This document shows positions 1 through 26,645 of a DNA stretch of 64,000 nt, one piece after another; position 1 is the stretch's first letter; each line of letters opens with the position of its first letter. The DNA comes from an uncultured delta proteobacterium (GTDB lineage Bacteria; Desulfobacterota; Desulfobaccia; Desulfobaccales; 0-14-0-80-60-11): contig CAVYJK010000019.1 in assembly GCA_963768765.1 (NCBI GenBank), forward strand, positions 11,604-75,603, given 5' to 3'. The position numbers were made by a program, and so were the translations under genes. The notes below the pieces were generated by a model. The model had not been told where the DNA came from and searched no databases. It saw nothing but the letters and a program-made list of their open reading frames with translations.

Positions 1-974
1 AAGGACGGCAGGGGCGGCTGGCCGTCCATTTCCCGTACCAGGTTTTCGATGATGGTGTCCGCTTCGTAGTGGGCCACCGCCCCGGCCTTGGAAGTGGGCA
101 CGTTGGTGGCGTCGCCGATGACATAGACGTGGTCGTAGTTTTTGGCCTTCAGGGTGTTGTGGTCCGTATCCACGTAGCCCATGGGGTCGCCCATGCCGCT
201 GTCCATGATGACCTGGGCGCCGAAGTTGGGCGGGATGGCTACCAGGAGGTCATAGGGCACCTCCTCCCCCCCATAGGATTTGATGACCTTTTTGGCCCCG
301 TCCACCGAGGCGATCTGGAAGTTGGGGGTAACCTTGATGTTTTTCTCCTGGCAGATGTTACCCAAGATCTCTGCCGCCACCGGCTTGGTGAAGGCCGCGG
401 ACAGGGGCGTCACCAGTTCGATTTCAATTGAGTCCCTCACCCCGTGGGTGGCGAAAAACCAGTCGGCCATGAAGGCGAACTCCAGGGGGGCCACCGGACA
501 TTTGAAGGGCAGTTCGGCGATGTTGATGACCACCCGGCCCTTGTCGAAATATTTCATCTTCTCATACAGCGCCACCGCGCCGTCGGCGCTATAGAAATTG
601 TGGATGTCGCGCCCCATCCCCTCGCTCATGCCCTCCACTTCTTCCGGCACGATGCGGCAGCCGGTGGCCACCACCAGCCAGTCATAGGCATAAGTGTCTC
701 TCTTGGTCTTGACCTGCTTTTTGACCGGATCGATCTCCGTTACTTCATCCAGCACAAAATTGACCCCAGGAGGGATATATTTGATTTTGGGTTTAACGCA
801 GTCTTCCGGGGTGTAGATGCCGAAGGGTATGAAGAGCCAGCCGGGCTGGTAGTGATGCTGCCAATCCCGGTCGATAATGATTATCTCCCATTTGGATTCC
901 AGTAATTTTTGTCGCATCTTGGCGGCGATAATGGTGCCGCCGGTGCCGCTGCCCAGAATCACCAGTTTCTTCAT
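1..974 (-). CDS. FAD/NAD(P)-dependent oxidoreductase, sulfide:quinone oxidoreductase (SQR type III)-like; 3' end runs off the window
   Basis: Read manually from ATG 974: MKKLVILGSGTGG (Rossmann motif), HHYQPGWLFIPFG, FKCPVAPLE, VYVIGDATNVPTSKAG. Not in the ORF track because it has no stop inside the window. Confidence 0.85.
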   Translation of the reverse strand, partial: MKKLVILGSGTGGTIIAAKMRQKLLESKWEIIIIDRDWQHHYQPGWLFIPFGIYTPEDCVKPKIKYIPPGVNFVLDEVTEIDPVKKQVKTKRDTYAYDWLVVATGCRIVPEEVEGMSEGMGRDIHNFYSADGAVALYEKMKYFDKGRVVINIAELPFKCPVAPLEFAFMADWFFATHGVRDSIEIELVTPLSAAFTKPVAAEILGNICQEKNIKVTPNFQIASVDGAKKVIKSYGGEEVPYDLLVAIPPNFGAQVIMDSGMGDPMGYVDTDHNTLKAKNYDHVYVIGDATNVPTSKAGAVAHYEADTIIENLVREMDGQPPLPS

Positions 975-1208
975 GCCGGTAGCCTCTCCTATTCCCAGGA
1001 ATTTAATATATTATATAATACTATTAATTATTTTTCTTTGCATAAGTTAAGACCGCTAAATAATTTTTCTACCCTTTCAGGTCAAATAAATGGACGCCAG
1101 GGCCCCGGGAAGCCCTTAACCCAAGATTCATCCCCTGCCCGGATGGGCCGGACCTGAAGCAGGGTGCACCCGAGCCCAAAACCGGCAACCGAAAACTCGT
1201 TCTTCCCC

Positions 1209-1237
1209 TTGACTCATCCGGCAATTCAAGCTAAGAT
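1209..1237 (+). promoter_or_regulatory. sigma70-type promoter of the formate dehydrogenase gene
   Basis: TTGACT-17 nt-TAAGAT, about 65 nt upstream of ATG 1301. Confidence 0.6.
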
Positions 1238-1239
1238 GA

Positions 1240-1257
1240 ACGTGAATTAATCCACAA
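1240..1257. promoter_or_regulatory. Rex-like operator
   Basis: ACGTGAATTAATCCACAA versus Rex consensus TTGTGAA-N4-TTCACAA, immediately downstream of the -10 box. Confidence 0.45.
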
Positions 1258-1300
1258 AGATAATTTTTTGGTGCAAACCCAACGACTTAGGAGTGGCTCC

Positions 1301-3342
1301 ATGGACTTTCGGACCGTTTACACCACCTGTTCCTATTGCGGCTGCGGCTGCGGCATCTTGCTGGAAGTATTGAACGAAGACGTCATCTCCTCCCTACCCG
1401 TGAAGACGCACCCCGTGAGCCAGGGCAGTCTTTGCATCAAGGGCTGGAATATTCACGAATTCATCGGCAGCGACCAGCGCCTGAAGACGCCGCTGCTGCG
1501 GAAGAACGGGGAACTGGCGCCGGTGAGTTGGGACGAAGCCATGGACGCCGCGGCCACCGGGCTCAAGAAAGTGGTGGAAAAGTACGGCCCCGACGCGGTG
1601 GCGGTGCTGGCCTCGGCCAAAGTCACCAATGAAGAGAACTACCTGATCCAGAAGTTCACCCGGGCCGCCATCGGCACCAACAACGTGGACCACTGCGCCC
1701 GACTCTGACACAGCTCCACCGTGGTCGGTCTGGCCGCGGCTTTCGGTTCCGGCGCCATGACTAACTCCATCCCGGAGTTTGCCGATTGCAAAGCCATCTT
1801 TGTCATCGGCTCCAACACCACGGAGGACCACCCCATTGCCGCCAAGTGGATCATGCGCGGCAAGGCCAAGCGGCGCCAAGCTCATCGTGGCCGACCCCCG
1901 CTGGATCCAGCTCTCCGACCTGGCGGACGTGGCCGTGCAGCAGCGCCTGGGCAGCGACGTGGCTCTCATCAACGGCCTGATGCACATCATTATCAAGGAA
2001 GGCTGGCACGACCAGGCCTACGTGGATGAGCGCACCGAGGGCTTTGAAGCCCTGGCGGCCAAGGTGGCAGAGTACCCCCCCGACAAGGTGGCCCAGATCA
2101 CCGGCATCCCGGCGGCGACCCTTAAGCAGATGGCCGAGCTCTACGCCAAGAACAAGCCCGCGGCCATCATCTACGCCATGGGCATCACCCAGCACACCAC
2201 CGGGGTGGACAACGTCAAGTCCTGTGCCAACCTCGCCATGCTCACCGGCAACGTCGGGCGTCGCCTCCGGCGGGGTCAACCCCCTGCGGGGCCAGAACAA
2301 CGTCCAGGGGGCCTGCGACATGGGGGGCCTCCCCAACGTCTTCACCGGCTACCAGCCGGTGGCTGACGAGGCGGCCAATAAGAAATTCTCCGAGTTCTGG
2401 GGTAAAGATCTCCCCAAAAAACCGGGCCTCACCATCATGGAGATGTTCAACGGCATCGACGAAGGCAAGATCAAGGCCCTCTACGTGGTGGGCGAAAACC
2501 CCATGGTCACCGACCCGGACCTGCACCACGTGGAAGCGGCCCTGAAAAAGCTGGAGGTCTTCATCGTCCAGGACGTCTTCCTGACCCAGACGGCCAGGCT
2601 GGCCCAGATCGTGCTCCCCGGCACCTCCTTCGCCGAGAAGGACGGCACCTTCACCAACACCGAGCGCCGGGTCCTCCTGGTGCGCCAGGCCTGCAAGCCC
2701 GTGGGCGAGTCCCGCCCCGACTGGCAGATCGTTTGCGATCTCTCCACCCGCATGGGCTACCCCATGAAATACAACTCCGCGGAAGAAATCTTCGAGGAAC
2801 TCCGCAAAGTCACCCCCAGCTACGCCGGCATAACCTATAAGCGTCTGGAGAAGGCGGGCTTGCAGTGGCCCTGCCCCACCGAAGAGCACCCCGGCACCAT
2901 GTTCCTGCACAAGGACCGCTTCACCCGGGGCAAGGGCATGCTCCACGCCATCGACTACAAGCCGCCGGCGGAGGAACCGGACGCCGATTATCCCCTGTTC
3001 CTCACCACCGGCCGGTCCTTTGTCCACTACCACTCCGGCACCATGACCCGGGTCTCCCCCACCCTGAACCGGGAGATGGCAACCGGCTACGTGGAAATCA
3101 GCCCCACGGACGCCAAGGCCATGGGGATTAAAGACGGCGAGCGGGTCAAGGTCAGCTCCCGCCGGGGCGAGATCCAGATCAAGGCCAAAGTCAGCCGCAA
3201 GGTGGACCGGGGCGTGGTCTTCATCCCCTTCCACTTCGCCGAGGCCGCGGCCAACGTCCTCACCAACCCGGCCTACGACCCGGTGGCCAAGATCCCGGAA
3301 TACAAGGCCTGCGCCGTGAAAGTGGAAAAACTGGCGGCGTAA
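1301..3342 (+). CDS. fdhF: Formate dehydrogenase alpha subunit (Mo/W-bisPGD), selenoprotein; two apparent sequencing frameshifts (~1865, ~2257)
   Basis: CSYCGCGC...C 4Fe-4S motif, DHCARL-TGA(1706-1708)-[21 protein letters not shown]-terminal [10 protein letters not shown]; RBS AGGAG. Confidence 0.93.
1719..1739 (+). promoter_or_regulatory. Bacterial SECIS hairpin
   Basis: CCGTGGTC-GGTCT-GGCCGCGG, an 8-bp stem starting 10 nt after the in-frame UGA; the GGUCU apical sequence matches the E. coli fdhF SECIS. Confidence 0.8.
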
Positions 3343-3674: not shown

Positions 3675-4883
3675 ATGAATGACTTGATAGAGGCAATCAA
3701 AGCGCAGGCCCAGGAATTGACCGAGGAACTCACTTCCCTGCGTCGCGACTTCCACCAGCACCCGGAACTCTCCCACCAGGAGGAGCGCACCGCCCGCCGG
3801 GTGGCGGAATACCTGGGGAATTTGGGCCTCGAGGTGCGCACCGGCATCGCCGGCCACGGGGTGGTGGGGGTGCTTAAGGGCGCCCGCCCCGGCCGCGCTG
3901 TGGCCTGGCGGGCCGACATGGACGCCCTGCCCCTCACCGAAAAGGTCAAGGTCCCCTGGCGCTCCAAGGTGCCCGGGGTGATGCACGCCTGCGGCCACGA
4001 CTTCCACGTGAGCATCGCCCTGGCCGCGGCCCGGTTGTTGAGCGGACTTAAGGAGCAACTGGCCGGGCGGTACGTCTTCATCTTCCAGCCCGCGGAAGAG
4101 GGCCCGCCCCAAGGGGAGATGAGCGGCGCCCGGGGCATGGTGGAGGCCGGCGTCCTGGACGACCCCCCCGTTGCCGCCATCTGCGCCCTGCACGTGGCCC
4201 CCAACCTGGAGGCGGGCCACCTGCGGTACGGCTCCGACGCGGTGATGGCCGGGGCCGACCACCTCACCCTCACCGTCACCGGCAAATCAGCCCACGGCGC
4301 CACGCCCCACCGGGGAGTGGACCCCATCCTGGCCGCGGCCCTCCTGCTCACCCAGGTCCAGGCCTTTCTGGCCCAACGCCTGGACCCCCGCGCCCCCAAG
4401 GTCCTCACCTTCGGGAAGATCGAAGGCGGCAACCGCTTCAACATCCTGGCCGACGCCGTGAGATTAGAAGGGAGCCTCCGGTACTTGCAGGACTCCGTGC
4501 GCCAGGAGGTGCTCACCGGCCTCAAGCGCCTCTTTGACGGGCTCTCCAGGGCCACCGGGGCCGAAATCGCCCTGAGCGCGGATCATATCTATCCCATCCT
4601 CCGCAACGACCCCCAGCTCAGCGAGCGGGCCGTCCCACTGCTCAAAACCCTGGTGGGCCCGCAGCGCCTCAAATCCTTGCAGCCGGCCATGGGCAGCGAA
4701 GATTTTTCTTACTTTGCCGCCAGGGTCCCGGCCTTCTATTTCTTCCTGGGGGTGCGCCCCCCCGGCGCCCGGGCCCAGGCCCTGCACTCCCCCCACTTCA
4801 ACCCCGACGAAGCCGCCCTGCCCTGGGGCCTCACGGCCGCGGCGGGGCTGCTGGCGGCCCTGGGTGAACCCGAAGCCCAATAA
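3675..4883 (+). CDS. M20 family amidohydrolase
   Basis: RRDFHQHPELS, RADMDALP, MHACGHD, FQPAEEG, MGSEDFS, LHSPHF. Confidence 0.92.
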   Translation: MNDLIEAIKAQAQELTEELTSLRRDFHQHPELSHQEERTARRVAEYLGNLGLEVRTGIAGHGVVGVLKGARPGRAVAWRADMDALPLTEKVKVPWRSKVPGVMHACGHDFHVSIALAAARLLSGLKEQLAGRYVFIFQPAEEGPPQGEMSGARGMVEAGVLDDPPVAAICALHVAPNLEAGHLRYGSDAVMAGADHLTLTVTGKSAHGATPHRGVDPILAAALLLTQVQAFLAQRLDPRAPKVLTFGKIEGGNRFNILADAVRLEGSLRYLQDSVRQEVLTGLKRLFDGLSRATGAEIALSADHIYPILRNDPQLSERAVPLLKTLVGPQRLKSLQPAMGSEDFSYFAARVPAFYFFLGVRPPGARAQALHSPHFNPDEAALPWGLTAAAGLLAALGEPEAQ

Positions 4884-4894
4884 GCAGGCGCTCT

Positions 4895-5242
4895 AATACC
4901 GGGTCACAATCAAAAAAGTGGCACAGGCGTCTCGCCTGTGCGGCACAGGCTTTAGCCTGCGACTACCAAAGATCGCCTTCTAATAACAACCCGAGACCTC
5001 TGCGAAAATCTCGATTATTTCGCTGGTTAATCAAAATGTAGCGTAGGCGCCCTCGCCTGCGACCATATAAGGCATGGGCAGCCGAGGGCGGCTATCCTAC
5101 ATGAGATTTTCGCAGAGGTCTCAACCCGGTATAAGACGGGCGGACACGCAGGTCCGCCCCTACAATAGAGTCGTTGTGGCAAAAATACGTAGGGGCAACC
5201 CGCTGAGTCGCCCCTTACAGTTGGTGGGCCGTCCCCACCTAC
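4895..5242. mobile_element. Nested MITE-like elements carrying REP-like palindromes, followed by further GTAG/CTAC REPs
   Basis: Perfect 20-bp inverted repeats GAGACCTCTGCGAAAATCTC (4993-5012) and 5103-5122, flanked by AACCC direct repeats, lying inside an outer ATACCGGGT...ACCCGGTAT pair. Confidence 0.7.
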
Positions 5243-5286
5243 TCTTCTTCAGTGATTGCAGGGAGTCGCGGTTGGAGGCAGTGAAC

Positions 5287-5841
5287 CTACTTCTCCCGGT
5301 GGAGACCCTTCACCCACTCCGGGGTGGTGGCCCCGGGGATGGAGTCCCCTTCGGGGATGTAGGGCTTCAGGTCCAGGATGGGGGAGCCGTCCTGGGCGTC
5401 CAGGTCCGCCACTTCCACCACGTTCCCCTCTACCTTGACGATGCGGCAGGCGGTGAGCCCGATGAGGTTGGGCCTGACCGGCGCCCGGGTGGCGAAGACC
5501 CCGGTCAAAGGGTTGGCCGGGTCCCGGCGGGGATGCACCTTGAGGGTGGCCCGCTCTTCCGGACGGTCGTTTTGGTGGAACCAGTAGAAGACCCAGAGGT
5601 GGGAAAAACCTTCCAACCCCTGAAGGGCCGGAGCGAATTCCGGCTTGATGGTAAGGACGGTCCGTTCTCCCTGCCGCTGGACCACGCCCACGGGGTTCAG
5701 ATGGATGGGATCGATTTTGTGCACCCTGGGGTCCTTTTCAGCAGTTGGATTTTTTGCTTCAGCGGCTTTGGTAATGCCAGTATAAGCCATTCCCAATAAA
5801 AGCCAACCCACCATCCCGGTAAACACCAGCCAGCGCGACAT
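5287..5841 (-). CDS. trmO: TrmO/TsaA-family SAM-binding beta-barrel (tRNA m6t6A37 methyltransferase-like) with a signal-peptide-like N-terminus
   Basis: LEGFSHLWVFYWFH, GVFATRAPVRPNLIGL, LDAQDGSPILDLKPY. Confidence 0.8.
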   Translation of the reverse strand: MSRWLVFTGMVGWLLLGMAYTGITKAAEAKNPTAEKDPRVHKIDPIHLNPVGVVQRQGERTVLTIKPEFAPALQGLEGFSHLWVFYWFHQNDRPEERATLKVHPRRDPANPLTGVFATRAPVRPNLIGLTACRIVKVEGNVVEVADLDAQDGSPILDLKPYIPEGDSIPGATTPEWVKGLHREK

Positions 5842-21783: not shown

Positions 21784-22140
21784 CTAGTATTTTGTCCCGC
21801 AAATTCCTTAACATAGGCACAGGACCGCTAAACTCCCCCTCCCCTGGTGGGAGGGGGTTGATGGATAAGACGCAGTAATCATTAAATGTTTTTATCACCC
21901 CCACCCTGACCCTCCCCCATCAAGGGGGAGGGAAATACTAGTGGTGCGTTTCGCAATTACCTATTCTTATAAATGTCCTTAAAATTCCCCTCTCCCCTCG
22001 GGGGAGAGGGTTAGGGTGAGGGGGGCGAATTTTCTAATCCAACGCCATTACTGGACTATTATCACCCCCACCTTGATCCTCCTCCATTTTTCCCGCATTG
22101 GGGGGGGGGCGGGGGCTGTTGGCCCCGGCCCTCCCCTAAT
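21784..22140. repeat. Tandem CTAG-bounded elements with G/C-tract palindromic cores
   Basis: CTAGTATTT (21784)...AAATACTAG (21941); the next element starts at the shared CTAG (CTAGTGGTGCGTTTCGCAATTA). Confidence 0.65.
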
Positions 22141-22280
22141 ATCACTTTGTTAACCTCCTGCCAGGGCCGCCAGGGCAGGCGGTCCTGCCTGGTCATGCCA
22201 GGCCCCGCCTCGGGGCCGGACAAAAGGAGCCGGAGGTATCGGCGGCTGCCCTCCAGCCCTGAGCAAACGCCAGCCTGGTG

Positions 22281-22628
22281 TCAGAGGGGTTCTCCTTGAT
22301 GGGTCAATTCCTTGGGAACCGCGGGGTATTCCTTGCCACACCAGCCATGCCAGCCGCCCTCCAGCACGTAGACCTCCTTGAGCCCCATCCGGTCCAGTTC
22401 CCGGGCCATCGCCGGGCACTCGGTAACGCCGTTTTCGCAGTACAGGACCACCTTCTGGTTTTTGGGGAGCTTCCCGGCCAGGCTGGGAAGTTTGGCCGGC
22501 TCGATGCGGTGTGCGCCTTCAATCTTGGCGATGCTCTTGCCGAAGGCCTCCGGGGACCTGATGTCGATGAGGAGAAGATCCGGCTGTCCCAGCCAACCCT
22601 TCAAGGTCTCTTTGTTGATGGATTTCAC
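22281..22628 (-). CDS. Rhodanese-like protein (Cys form)
   Basis: IDIR, IEGAHRI, VVLYCENG, VYVLEGGWHGW; RBS GAGGAGG before a GTG start. Confidence 0.85.
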   Translation of the reverse strand: MKSINKETLKGWLGQPDLLLIDIRSPEAFGKSIAKIEGAHRIEPAKLPSLAGKLPKNQKVVLYCENGVTECPAMARELDRMGLKEVYVLEGGWHGWCGKEYPAVPKELTHQGEPL

Positions 22629-22724
22629 CTTGGCAAACCTCCTCACCGGCATGAAATAAAATCTCAGATAGGATGGTCCCCCCCCCACGGGGGCCGGGTT
22701 GCAAAACGGTTCAGCCTCTTAAAC

Positions 22725-22797
22725 TGTCATTCTGAGCGAAGCGAAGAATCTAGTAATTTAAACGGGCTAGACCCTTCGCCTTCGGCTCAGGGTGACA
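22725..22797. repeat. TGTCA...TGACA palindromic repeat
   Basis: TGTCATTCTGAGCGAAGCGAAG...CTTCGCCTTCGGCTCAGGGTGACA; related copy at 23443-23516. Confidence 0.75.
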
Positions 22798-22863
22798 AAA
22801 AAACGAGTCCTTCAACCGCCTGATAAGCGCAACCGGGAAAGCCGGTTCGAAGCCCACCTTTCG

Positions 22864-23196
22864 TCAAGGCGGGTCCCTGAGGTCCGTGGGATAACCTTTC
22901 CCTTCCCAGGCCTGCCAGCCGCCCGCCAAGATGTAGACCTTAGAGAACCCCATCCGTTCCAGTTCCTGCCCCACCCGGGAGCTGGTACCCTCCTGGGGTC
23001 AGGTTCAATAGAGGACCAGCCTTTGGTCCTTGGAAAGATCCCTGGACCACTCCGACACCCGCTGGGGATCAAAACGGTGGGCGCCCGCGATCTTGGCGTT
23101 GCTACCCTCCCAGGCGGCCTGATTCCGCAAATCGATGATGAAAACGTCGGGGGCTCCCAACCAGCCTTTCAGGATATCGGGGTCGATCTTTTCCAC
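22864..23196 (-). CDS. Rhodanese-like selenoprotein candidate with a U-T-U motif
   Basis: GTG start after AAGGAG; LVLY-TGA(23005-7)-T-TGA(22999-23001)-PQEGTSSRVGQELERMGFSKVYILAGGWQAW continues in frame and aligns with the adjacent paralog. Confidence 0.82.
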
Positions 23197-23442
23197 GCCG
23201 GGGTCTCCTTTGCCGCAAGCCCGGGGCGCCACGGACCCGGCGGCAAGTCTGCTTCGGCCGGGAACTTTAGACCTGATATGACAGTCCGGGAAATGAAAGA
23301 GCAGACAAGTGGGCGGCCGTGTTGTTTCAATAAGTAATCATCATTTTCCCGGAATCCAGGGGTTGGATTGGGAAAAATCACGGGGACTTAAGCCGATCTA
23401 GGATCCTGTTAGGGGCTGTGGAAAGACGCTCAGTTTTTCGAT

Positions 23443-23516
23443 TGTCATCCTGGAACAAAGCGAAGAATCCGGTAATTTCAATGGACTGGACCTTTCGCCT
23501 TGGGCTCAGGTTGACA
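23443..23516. repeat. TGTCA...TGACA palindromic repeat
   Basis: Degenerate copy of 22725-22797. Confidence 0.7.
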
Positions 23517-23675
23517 ACATAACGGGTTTTGCCACGGCCTGACAGCCATCCTGGGCGGAGGCCTCTCTCCCGAAGTTCTCCCCTTCGGCTTAACAACCCC
23601 GGTTTTTCCCGGTCTTTACAACCAAGGCGGGTAAAGTTTAGCCCTTCCCTGGGATTTATGGTAAGGTGAAAAACC

Positions 23676-26645
23676 ATGGAAGTCATTGCTGACCTGCACC
23701 TCCACTCCCGTTTTTCCATCGCCACCGGCCGGGAAGCAGACCTGGAGCACCTGGATCTCTGGGGCCGCTACAAAGGGGTGCAGGTGGTGGGCACGGGAGA
23801 TTGCACCCACCCGGAGTGGCTTAAGCAACTGGCCGCCAAGCTGGAGCCGGTCTCTGAAGGCACCTACGGGCTCAAAGGAGAGCTGGCCCTGCCGTTGAAC
23901 CTCCGGGGCCCCCATTGGGACGAGACCCCCCGGGTGCGATTCGTGATCACCGGCGAAGTGAGCACCATCTATAAAAAGGCCGGCAAGGTCCGCAAGGTCC
24001 ACCTGCTGCTGTTGCTTTCCGGCCTGAAGACCGCGGGCAAGCTCTCAGAGCGCCTGGGCCGCCTGGGCAACGTCACCTCCGATGGTCGCCCCATCCTGGG
24101 CCTGGATGCCCGGTACGTGCTGGAGCTGGTGCTGGACCTCGACCCCCAGGCCCTGGTGATCCCGGCCCACATCTGGACCCCCTGGTTTTCCGTGTTGGGG
24201 AGCAAGAGCGGCTTCGACTCCCTGGAGGAGTGCTTTGAGGAAGGGGTGGCCCACATTCACGCCCTGGAAACCGGTTTGTCGTCCGACCCGGCCATGAACT
24301 GGCGGGTCTCGGCCCTGGACCGCTTCCTCCTGGTCTCCAACTCCGACGCTCATTCGCCCCAAAAGCTGGGCCGGGAGGCCAATATTTTTCACGTGCCCCC
24401 AACCTATCCCGATATGGCCCAGGCCCTGCGCACCGGCGAAGGCTTCGGGGGCACCCTCGAGTTCTTTCCCCAGGAAGGCAAGTACCACCTGGACGGCCAC
24501 CGCAATTGCGGTGTCAGGCTCACCCCGGAAGAGGCCCGGGCCCTAAGCGGGGTCTGCCCCAAGTGCGCCAAGGCCCTGACCTACGGGGTGATGCACCGGG
24601 TGCTGGACCTGGCCGATCGCCCGGCCGGGACCCAGCCGCCGGCGGCCAGGCCTTTCGAGTCCCTCATCGCCCTGCCGGAGATCCTCCAGGAGGTCCTGGA
24701 GGTGGGCTCCAGCTCCAGTAAAAAGGTGCGGCAGCGTTACTTCCGCCTGCTGGAGAAACTGGGACCCGAGCTCCAGATCCTGCGCCGCACGCCCCTTTCG
24801 GAACTGGCCCGGGAGGGGGGCGATCTCCTGGCCCACGGCATCGACCAGATGCGCCGGCGGGAGGTAAACCTTGCCGGGGGCTACGACGGCGCCTACGGGG
24901 AGATTCGCCTCTTCACCCCGGAGGAGCGCCAGCGGTTGCTGCGCCAGGGGGCCTTTTTCAGCCTGGCGGGCACCGCCGCGGTGGCGTCCAAGCCTGATAA
25001 GGCAAACCTGCCGCCGCTTGCGGCCGGACCAAACGCCGCCAATTCTCCGGAAAGCCCGGATTTCGAAAACCGAAAACCGAAAACCGAAAACCGTCTTTTC
25101 GACGATCCGCTCCTGGCCCCGCTGAACCAGGCTCAGCGGCAGGCGGTGCTGCACCGGGGGCCGCCGCTGCTGGTGGTCGCGGGCCCCGGCACCGGCAAGA
25201 CCCGGGCCCTCACCCACCGCCTGGCCCATCTCCTGGCCCGCCGGGGCGCGGCCCCGGAAGAGATCCTGGCCGTCACCTTTACCCGACAGGCGGCCGGGGA
25301 GATGGCCGAGCGCCTCCGGCGCCTGCTCCCGGGCTTTCCGGGTCTGGAAAGACTCGCGCTCCAGACCTTTCACGCCCTGGGGCACCGGATCCTTCAGGAC
25401 CAGGGAGGCCCGGGCCGGGAGGTGGCGGATGAAGAGCGCCGCCGCCGCCTCATCCGGGAGATCGCCCGGAACCATAAGCTGCCCTTCGCCGCCCTGGAGA
25501 AGCAGATCACCTTCTGGAAGCAGGCCCTGCAATACCCGGAGGACGTGGACGGCGCCCCGGAGCCCCGGCATCTGGCGGCCTACCGGGACTACGAGGCCGC
25601 CCTGGAAGGGCAAAACCTGTGGGACTACGAGGACCTCATCGCCCGGCCCGCCCTGCTTTATGCCCGGCAGCCGGCATTGAGGGAGGCCTGCCGCGGTTTC
25701 CGCCACCTGCTGGTGGACGAGTACCAGGACCTGAATGAAGCCCAATACCGCCTGTTCCGAACCCTGGCGGGCCCCCAAGCGGAGATCATGGTCATCGGCG
25801 ACCCGGACCAGGCCATTTACGGTTTCCGGGGCGCCAGCCCCCGGTACTTCTCCCGGTTCCTGGCCGACTGGCCGGGCGCGGTGGCCTTGAGTTTCCCCGA
25901 GACCTACCGCCTGCCCCGGCCACTCCTTATGGCCGCCGGCCGGTTCCGGGCTGCGCCGGCGGGGGCAGCAGGCCCCCTGCTCACCCATCAGGCCGGCGCC
26001 GAGCCCCTGGTGCTCCTGGAGGCCCCCTCCGAGGCGGCCGAAGCCCGGACCATCGCCAAAGAGATCGAAAGATTGGTGGGAGGCCTGACCCACTACGCCC
26101 TGGAAGACGCGGGCCTCCGCCATCCGGACCGGCCGGAGCCGGCCGCCTTGCGGGATGTGGCGGTCCTTTATCGGCTGCACGCCCTGGGCCCGGAACTGGA
26201 GCGCCGCCTCACCGAGGCCGGCATCCCCTGCCTGCAGGCCCGGGAAGGGGTGGGCCCCGAATGGGACGGCCTGGACCTGGCCGCGGAGCGGGTTAAGCTT
26301 CTCACCTTGCACGCCGCCAAGGGACTGGAATTCCCTTACGTTTTCATTGCCGGCTTTGAGGCCGGCCTCCTTCCCTGGGAACCGGAAGGGGAATATCTCT
26401 CAGACCCGGAGGAAGAAAGGCGCCTGTTTTACGTGGGGCTGACCCGGGCTTCTCGCCAGGTCTTCCTCACCTGCTCCCGGGTGCGCACCGTCTGGGGCAA
26501 GAGACGGCGGGCCGGGGTCTCGCCCCTGGTTCAGGACCTGCCTCCGGAGTTGTTGCGCCGGCCCGCGGCGCCGCCCTCCCGGCAGGGACGGCAGCCCAGG
26601 CTTTTCCCGGAGTTGTGGCGGCCCCGAAACCCCAGGGTAGAATAA
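23676..26645 (+). CDS. Endonuclease Q-like PHP domain fused to a UvrD/Rep SF1 helicase
   Basis: DLHLHSRFS, PAHIWTPW, SNSDAHS, GKYHLDGH, CPKC; GPGTGKT, DEYQD, GDPDQAIYGFRG, TLHAAKGLEF, EERRLFYVGLTRA. Confidence 0.9.
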   Translation: MEVIADLHLHSRFSIATGREADLEHLDLWGRYKGVQVVGTGDCTHPEWLKQLAAKLEPVSEGTYGLKGELALPLNLRGPHWDETPRVRFVITGEVSTIYKKAGKVRKVHLLLLLSGLKTAGKLSERLGRLGNVTSDGRPILGLDARYVLELVLDLDPQALVIPAHIWTPWFSVLGSKSGFDSLEECFEEGVAHIHALETGLSSDPAMNWRVSALDRFLLVSNSDAHSPQKLGREANIFHVPPTYPDMAQALRTGEGFGGTLEFFPQEGKYHLDGHRNCGVRLTPEEARALSGVCPKCAKALTYGVMHRVLDLADRPAGTQPPAARPFESLIALPEILQEVLEVGSSSSKKVRQRYFRLLEKLGPELQILRRTPLSELAREGGDLLAHGIDQMRRREVNLAGGYDGAYGEIRLFTPEERQRLLRQGAFFSLAGTAAVASKPDKANLPPLAAGPNAANSPESPDFENRKPKTENRLFDDPLLAPLNQAQRQAVLHRGPPLLVVAGPGTGKTRALTHRLAHLLARRGAAPEEILAVTFTRQAAGEMAERLRRLLPGFPGLERLALQTFHALGHRILQDQGGPGREVADEERRRRLIREIARNHKLPFAALEKQITFWKQALQYPEDVDGAPEPRHLAAYRDYEAALEGQNLWDYEDLIARPALLYARQPALREACRGFRHLLVDEYQDLNEAQYRLFRTLAGPQAEIMVIGDPDQAIYGFRGASPRYFSRFLADWPGAVALSFPETYRLPRPLLMAAGRFRAAPAGAAGPLLTHQAGAEPLVLLEAPSEAAEARTIAKEIERLVGGLTHYALEDAGLRHPDRPEPAALRDVAVLYRLHALGPELERRLTEAGIPCLQAREGVGPEWDGLDLAAERVKLLTLHAAKGLEFPYVFIAGFEAGLLPWEPEGEYLSDPEEERRLFYVGLTRASRQVFLTCSRVRTVWGKRRRAGVSPLVQDLPPELLRRPAAPPSRQGRQPRLFPELWRPRNPRVE

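Follow-up and report, generated by a model that had tools for sequence, protein, structure and literature searches.

A leaderless rhodanese gene with two in-frame UGA codons, one codon apart, predicted to encode selenocysteine in an uncultured delta proteobacterium

We report that a reading frame appearing in the public record only as a short stub is almost certainly an intact rhodanese gene in which two TGA codons, one codon apart, both encode selenocysteine (Sec). The gene lies on the minus strand at 22864..23196 of a 64,000-nucleotide stretch of contig CAVYJK010000019.1 (assembly GCA_963768765.1), hereafter the window, and has 110 codons, running from a GTG at 23196 to a stop TGA at 22866-22864. 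The first in-frame UGA (codon 64, 23005..23007) falls at the canonical catalytic-Cys position of rhodaneses, and the second (codon 66, 22999..23001) at the Sec position that defines the protein family to which we assign the product. Judged from the sequence and its homologues, the product is highly likely to be a cytoplasmic (leaderless), single-domain rhodanese of 110 amino acids in which the usual Cys-x-Sec centre has become Sec-x-Sec. The same high confidence extends to the explanation as a whole, namely an intact rhodanese with Sec at both UGAs, a single recoding hairpin and termination at the third UGA. An initial annotation made from the letters of the window had proposed such a double-Sec rhodanese with two recoding events one codon apart, and the Sec machinery of the genome, homologues with Cys or Sec at both positions and independent contigs that keep both TGAs now bear this out.

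The minus-strand codons read CTC TAT TGA ACC TGA CCC CAG GAG GGT ACC AGC TCC CGG GTG GGG, so that the frame does continue past LVLY through TGA-ACC-TGA as had been claimed, and the read-through protein is MEKIDPDILKGW...DQRLVLY-U-T-U-PQEGTSSRVGQELERMGFSKVYILAGGWQAWEGKGYPTDLRDPP, followed by TGA, with the motif L-Y-U-T-U-P. An ORF finder returns this frame as two pieces of 75 and 36 amino acids, and the public record holds only a 63-amino-acid stub (23196-23008), which begins at the same GTG. The farthest upstream start codon of the frame is a GTG at 23232. A Shine-Dalgarno sequence, AAGGAG (23205..23210), stands 8 nt 5' of GTG 23196, and this start also agrees with the M-E-K-I of the orthologue from the same genus and with the public gene call. 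The interval 22864-23196 proposed in the initial annotation is therefore the true 110-codon coding sequence.

With U scored as C, the 110-amino-acid read-through protein reaches 127.6 bits (cut-off 115) on the family model NF041203 ("rhodanese_LYCAU, rhodanese-related (seleno)protein"), covering model positions 21-124 of 126. The score is 128.4 bits with a longer version of the frame and 113.9 bits, slightly below the cut-off, in a genome search in which stops were read through. The Pfam Rhodanese model PF00581 is matched at 9e-14 (52.1 bits, cut-off 22.2). The last position of the LYCAU motif is TGA 23001-22999, as the family requires, while the Cys of its third position is replaced by TGA 23007-23005, a replacement found in 20 of the 69 TGA-bearing members. 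Sec in place of Cys at this third position is, on the alignment, a variant inside NF041203 and no ground for exclusion, and the protein further shares with the family a P-x-E-x-T-S loop and a GGW motif.

In HMMER alignments U64 falls on the catalytic Cys of the structures 6mxv and 3tp9, and T-S on their R-S at the start of the helix, an alignment that requires a 2-residue insertion in the loop of the U-x-U protein. Its active-site loop, U64-T-U66-P-Q-E-G-T-S, is accordingly two residues longer than the canonical C-x4-[RT] and departs from the six-residue loop length. U64 also aligns with C64 of the neighbouring rhodanese discussed below, and the proposal that the first UGA sits exactly at the catalytic Cys is thus upheld. 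No signal peptide was found in the U-x-U protein, the best 12-residue hydrophobic window upstream scoring 0.87, against more than 2 in most members. Most of the family carries a signal peptide; the leaderless forms comprise, besides this gene, its relatives in three genomes (G003, G009 and G036), two CxU genes and the Cys paralogues, and a quick tree of 70 rows groups them as a single clade (SH-aLRT 99).

The double TGA recurs well beyond this genome. Searches of 61 close genomes (E up to 1e-20) gave a family match in 21, and in a sample of 401 genomes drawn evenly from the phylum (E up to 1e-25) a match was obtained in 88, with 118 match rows of which 94 had one TGA, 16 had two and eight had none. 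All 16 two-TGA rows, together with four further ones from the search of close genomes, read Y-U-x-U in a frame that stays open to its normal end, and these come from 20 genomes, a recurrence well above what chance would give. By loop type the homologues divide into 49 CxU, 20 UxU and three CxC, so that both positions hold Cys or Sec, as the initial annotation had expected; no U-x-C form occurs among the homologues read. Across the 69 TGA-bearing homologues the codon at position 64 is TGA in 20, TGC in 40 and TGT in nine, and that at position 66 is TGA in all 69 (invariant columns 16-18 of alignment A1). The second position is Cys in the three CxC homologues (L093, L094 and L097), with the all-Cys loops Y-C-S-C and Y-C-D-C. 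In the 70-row tree the UxU label needs at least five changes on well-supported branches, which argues that Cys and Sec at position 64 are exchanged, by gain or loss, repeatedly within the family. A search of genome contigs with the single protein produced 389 pattern matches, in none of which a relative was confirmed by tblastn.

Some homologues depart from the common architecture. In one (L043, G006:C12:29241-29576) the loop reads Y-U-Q-K and is two residues shorter, with a single TGA at the catalytic-Cys position; this is the sole case we saw with Sec at position one alone. In five others (L084-L087 and L091, from G196, G094, G338, G131 and G302) a UxU domain with a signal peptide heads a frame of 546-631 amino acids, and these are, as predicted from the frames, fusion proteins.

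The reading frame beyond the TGAs has the marks of a maintained protein. Compared with the orthologue from the same genus, 63% of the amino acids are identical ahead of the TGAs, 64% beyond them and 70% over the domain core; the genome G003, of that genus, likewise reads TGA ACC TGA. Both TGAs, which the initial annotation had marked for checking in raw reads, are spanned and kept by two metagenome contigs of relatives from different studies (X1 record 5 and X5 record 24), the contigs of runs X2 and X4 lying outside the TGA region. The X1 and X5 contigs have nine and 21 differences elsewhere and none listed between 22945 and 23032, and in the domain after the TGAs their differences are synonymous or I to V.

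The genome itself is equipped to insert Sec. On its contigs selA (564.4 bits), selB (374.7 bits) and selD (368.1 bits) each exceed the curated cut-off, and aragorn finds one tRNA-SeC with anticodon tca; with selA, selB, selC and selD all present, the assertion that this genome decodes UGA as Sec is borne out. Of the 1176 open frames with 400 codons or more, 499 end in TGA, which makes it the commonest terminator of long frames and indicates local recoding and not an altered genetic code. The selD gene (G000:C31:136267-137181, plus strand; G000 is the genome of the window) has one in-frame TGA, and the selenophosphate synthetase is thus, from its sequence, probably a selenoprotein. Three FdhA-like matches occur in the genome, one in the window and the others on contigs C32 and C16, each with one TGA. 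The match in the window, to the formate dehydrogenase alpha subunit (approximately 1322-3324, plus strand; G000:C19:12925-14927), is in three pieces in three frames, pointing to two frameshifts or to errors of assembly. A TsoB gene is found on contig C9 (approximately 3810-5530, minus strand; locus L008, within 250-3294), with 935 bits for NF045694 against a cut-off of 805 and two in-frame TGAs in F-Y-U-A-G-L-T-U, so that TsoB is a second double-Sec rhodanese-type protein encoded in this genome.

Downstream of the two UGAs the mRNA can form a SECIS-like hairpin, GCUCC-CGGGU-GGGGC (22968..22982, minus strand), with a 5-bp stem and a 5-nt loop, which two further C-G pairs across an A.A mismatch extend to 22985-22965. 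Its loop starts 27 nt past UGA64 and 21 nt past UGA66. In the mRNA of this gene the core has an energy of -5.4 kcal/mol and the extended form -7.8 kcal/mol, the 5-bp stem alone being weak and the model threshold of -7.5 being reached only with the two flanking pairs. The published bacterial SECIS (bSECIS) model asks for a loop of 3-9 nt that begins G[G|U], with the G within the first two loop positions, a stem of at least 4 bp, a spacing of 16-37 nt and an MFE of at most -7.5 kcal/mol (PMC13188914, section 5, the part of that source on which we draw). The hairpin 22982..22968 agrees with this model, having a loop of 5 nt, a stem of 5 bp plus 2, spacings of 21 and 27 nt and -7.8 kcal/mol in its extended form. 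The initial annotation had named a search for a bSECIS element and RNA folding as checks, and the same hairpin is recovered independently when the homologues are compared with RNAalifold.

That comparison used alignment A1, which covers 75 nt around the motif in the 69 TGA-bearing genes (20 UxU and 49 CxU), and the only consensus structure that RNAalifold returned was a 5-bp hairpin at columns 35-39/45-49. Of its core cells 342 of 345 are paired, a conservation that is partly forced by the conserved peptide T-S-[AS]-R-V-[AG]. The stem nevertheless shows compensatory C-G to U-A changes at two synonymous third positions: pair 36-48 is U-A in 39 genes, C-G in 27 and U-G in three, and is unpaired in none, both of its sides being synonymous third positions (Ser AGY, Ala GCR). 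Pair 37-47 changes from G-C to U-G, coupled to a change of the amino-acid pair Ala..Ala to Ser..Gly. The Ser codon of the stem is AGY in 69/69 genes and the Ala/Gly codon has a purine as its third base in 69/69, where GCC would be expected for these genomes, and loop position 2 is G throughout (69/69), with G (45) or U (24) at position 3. The observed covariation was reached by none of 500 shuffles, a control that ignores relatedness, so that GC3 differences between lineages and shared ancestry could inflate the C-G/U-A pattern; slid controls pair at most 53% of cells. In the seven TGA-less homologues only 19 of 35 stem pairs are kept, and the one intact stem among them has lost the loop G. 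That stem belongs to the all-Cys homologue L097 (G129:C38; Y-C-D-C-P-N-E-A-T-S), which has a full 5-bp stem, GCGCC...GGCGC, and may, on this pattern, be a recent Sec-to-Cys convert.

Two hairpins had been drawn in the initial annotation, and both can indeed be drawn in the sequence, but only GCUCC-CGGGU-GGGGC withstood comparison; the other, CCCAGGAG-GGUACCAG-CUCCCGGG, has 44.7% of its cells paired in the 69 homologues, no better than shuffles. Folding the mRNA of this gene as a single sequence favours another, non-conserved structure, and the stability is not unusual (z -0.85). The long-range stem of that MFE fold, which includes a UGA, has 57.6% of cells paired, equal to shuffles, and was likewise rejected. 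An Rfam scan of 22200-23400 (E up to 10) gave four chance matches and no SECIS. The hairpins of UxU and CxU genes are alike, with an extended stem in 7 of 20 and 15 of 49, respectively, and median local MFEs of -9.9 and -9.3 kcal/mol. Being equal in extension and stability, they give no sign of a special adaptation to the first UGA.

This last observation bears on the most serious competing explanation, in which only UGA66 is read as Sec, while at UGA64 translation mostly ends, giving the 63-amino-acid stub, or a near-cognate tRNA (Trp or Cys) decodes the codon. On this view little or none of the full-length double-Sec protein would be made, and the first UGA would perhaps act as a selenium-dependent throttle on expression. 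Several features fit such a division of labour. The hairpin stands at the spacing of the single-UGA (CxU) majority (49 of 69) and the UxU genes lack any adaptation of it; the base after the first UGA is A, G or T, whereas C follows the second in 57 of 69; and the distance between UGA and SECIS in Escherichia coli is reported to be tight. Against it, UGA64 lies at the catalytic Cys, where termination or Trp would presumably kill the enzyme, and yet 20 genomes retain the UxU form, with constraint on the frame that follows, and it has arisen or persisted on at least five well-supported branches. The 27-nt spacing, moreover, falls inside the 16-37 nt of the bSECIS model (PMC13188914, section 5). 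We therefore consider it quite unlikely that UGA66 alone encodes Sec.

The gene might instead be a decaying pseudogene, a former Cys-x-Cys rhodanese with two nonsense mutations whose neighbour is the working copy, and the existence of all-Cys CxC homologues (L093, L094 and L097) and a public annotation that halts at the first TGA would be in keeping with this. Decay does not readily account, however, for the same two codons being TGA in 20 genomes with no further stop or frameshift after them, for an identity after the TGAs that equals the identity before them, for mild differences (synonymous or I to V) past the TGAs in the relatives' contigs, or for a SECIS hairpin that is retained only in TGA-bearing members. 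Nor is it easy to see the TGAs as errors of sequencing or assembly that conceal TGC or TGT. Local errors do exist in this metagenome-type assembly, which has 36 contigs and homopolymer runs and in which the FdhA match of the window is split over three frames, but two independent contigs from two other studies are identical at 22999-23007, and the same-genus genome also has TGA ACC TGA. Recurrence of the two TGAs, equal identity on either side of them and contigs that keep them together make the pseudogene very unlikely and an error extremely so. Sec at both UGAs of an intact gene thus remains the reading that we prefer.

A second rhodanese gene lies in tandem at 22281..22628 (minus strand). 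It encodes a leaderless protein of 115 amino acids, the length also given in the public record, with the loop Y-C-E-N-G-V-T-E-C-P and no TGA; it matches Pfam Rhodanese at 7.8e-17 and NF041203 at 93 bits, below the cut-off. The colinearity of the two genes that had been noted initially was confirmed (44% identity, E 3e-33), with C64 of the neighbour aligned with the first UGA. Two other claims about this neighbour fared less well. It had been called a single-Cys paralogue, yet its loop holds two conserved Cys (Y-C-E-N-G-V-T-E-C-P) in 3/3 paralogues; and its suggested role as a selenium-independent backup is doubtful, since the paralogue is old, is conserved in two other genera, keeps a loop of its own (Y-C-E-[ND]-G-x-x-x-C-P) in the genomes G003 and G012, and has a shorter C-x6-C-P loop. 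The catalytic loop (C-E-N-G-V-T) is of canonical length and hence shorter than that of the U-x-U protein, and the gene sits in the leaderless clade of the U-x-U gene. On these comparisons the neighbour is an old paralogue and no Cys version of the U-x-U site.

In G003 three genes stand together, namely the UTU gene, the Cys paralogue and a CAU gene with a signal peptide. A pyruvate kinase gene lies downstream of the U-x-U locus in three genera (G000, G009 and G036), and the other neighbours in the window and six related loci include a transglutaminase-like protein, an OYE-type flavin oxidoreductase, a UvrD-type helicase and a zinc-ribbon protein. No consistent functional partner was found among the neighbours in the window and these six loci. 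We saw no promoter-like site in 21900-23700 and no terminator-like site after either rhodanese gene.

A double-Sec rhodanese is not new, contrary to what the initial annotation had implied: the UxU form of a rhodanese-related sulfurtransferase selenoprotein was described from deltaproteobacterial symbionts of Olavius algarvensis (Zhang and Gladyshev, 2007, NAR 35:4952, PMC1976440). It is, from the passages on the UxU form, the same kind of object as the gene studied here, in another organism and another copy, and the description there of a change from CxU to UxU suggests that those sequences and this gene share a subfamily. The same passages do not deal with a SECIS hairpin, leaderless forms or a Cys paralogue. 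The kind has therefore been known since 2007, and what is added here is the leaderless subclade, the recurrent exchange of Cys and Sec and the covariation of the hairpin. In the parts of later compilations that concern it, the family is listed as 'COG0607 form 2, CxU' (PMC9312934) and as 'form 3, NF041203, CxU, 1 Sec' (PMC13188914), and the functions of most such predicted selenoproteins 'are not clear' (PMC9312934). We found no experiment on the function of the NF041203 family in the literature.

Comparison with known systems helps to place the protein. With NF041203 rhodanese_LYCAU it has in common the Sec at the second UGA, the P-x-E-x-T-S loop, the GGW motif and the SECIS hairpin, whereas the family motif has Cys first and most members a signal peptide, and the protein described here has Sec first and no signal peptide. 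TsoB (NF045694, UxxxxU, 2 Sec), as listed in the relevant part of PMC13188914, also has a rhodanese domain whose active-site loop holds two Sec, yet it is a protein of approximately 570 amino acids with DsbD-type membrane and thioredoxin-like domains and Sec four residues apart, and the U-x-U protein scores 22.6 bits on the TsoB model. The single-domain Cys rhodaneses GlpE/PspE, 6mxv and 3tp9 belong to the same PF00581 fold family, but their loop is C-x4-[RT], whereas that of the U-x-U protein is two residues longer, has a second chalcogen and carries Sec instead of Cys. As to the hairpin, it resembles the SECIS of E. coli fdhF and the bSECISearch model in being a small coding-region stem-loop just after the UGA, and differs from the former in its unrelated sequence, its very short stem (5 bp, plus 2) and the two UGAs that it apparently serves.

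How could one hairpin serve two codons? In the mechanism that we propose, SelB carrying Sec-tRNASec would bind the single hairpin 22982..22968, whose loop starts 27 nt beyond UGA64, and deliver Sec at that codon; two codons on, a second SelB complex would reuse this hairpin for UGA66, now at a distance of 21 nt, which is the spacing that the hairpin has in the commoner CxU members. Translation would then terminate at the third UGA, 22866-22864, after which there is no such hairpin. The scheme assumes that a single hairpin can work efficiently at two distances that differ by 6 nt, and in E. coli the distance between UGA and SECIS has been reported as tightly constrained. UxU rhodaneses therefore offer a clean natural test both of the distance over which a bacterial SECIS can serve its UGA and of whether one hairpin loads SelB twice within two codons. 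For annotation, the consequence is a 63-amino-acid fragment in the public record for this gene, and probably likewise for many of the UxU copies in the 20 genomes.

In the protein, the extended active-site loop would place two selenols in a single pocket. By analogy with the family, the U-x-U protein may carry or reduce sulfane sulfur or selenium, with a persulfide or perselenide formed on one Sec and resolved through an Se-Se bond, a role that we put forward tentatively, with somewhat less than even confidence, from family resemblance alone. A bolder and unlikely proposal is that the U-x-U protein and its tandem C-x6-C-P paralogue form a cytoplasmic selenium/sulfur relay in which the diselenide-forming pocket would take up selenium as a perselenide and pass it on, for example to selenophosphate synthetase, with one SECIS hairpin providing for two Sec 6 nt apart. 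If this were true, the U-x-U rhodanese would be a dedicated selenium-delivery protein, of a kind long sought in bacteria, and its mRNA a natural example of a single short SECIS hairpin that directs both Sec insertions, 6 nt from each other.

Two minor features of the DNA around the genes may also be recorded. In the gap downstream of the Cys paralogue, at 22100-22118 of the window, there are ten G followed by CGGGGG, a homopolymer type that invites assembly errors. In the spacer that separates the rhodanese genes, 22725-22797 is occupied by a nested inverted repeat with the arms TGTCATTCTGAGC/GCTCAGGGTGACA and GCGAAGAATCTAG/CTAGACCCTTCGC. Very many contigs from unrelated metagenomes, short and deep (summed depth up to about 2600), match part of this region, 22769-22806, and then continue into unlike sequence; the matched part resembles a small repeat, or a mobile hairpin element, of wide distribution.
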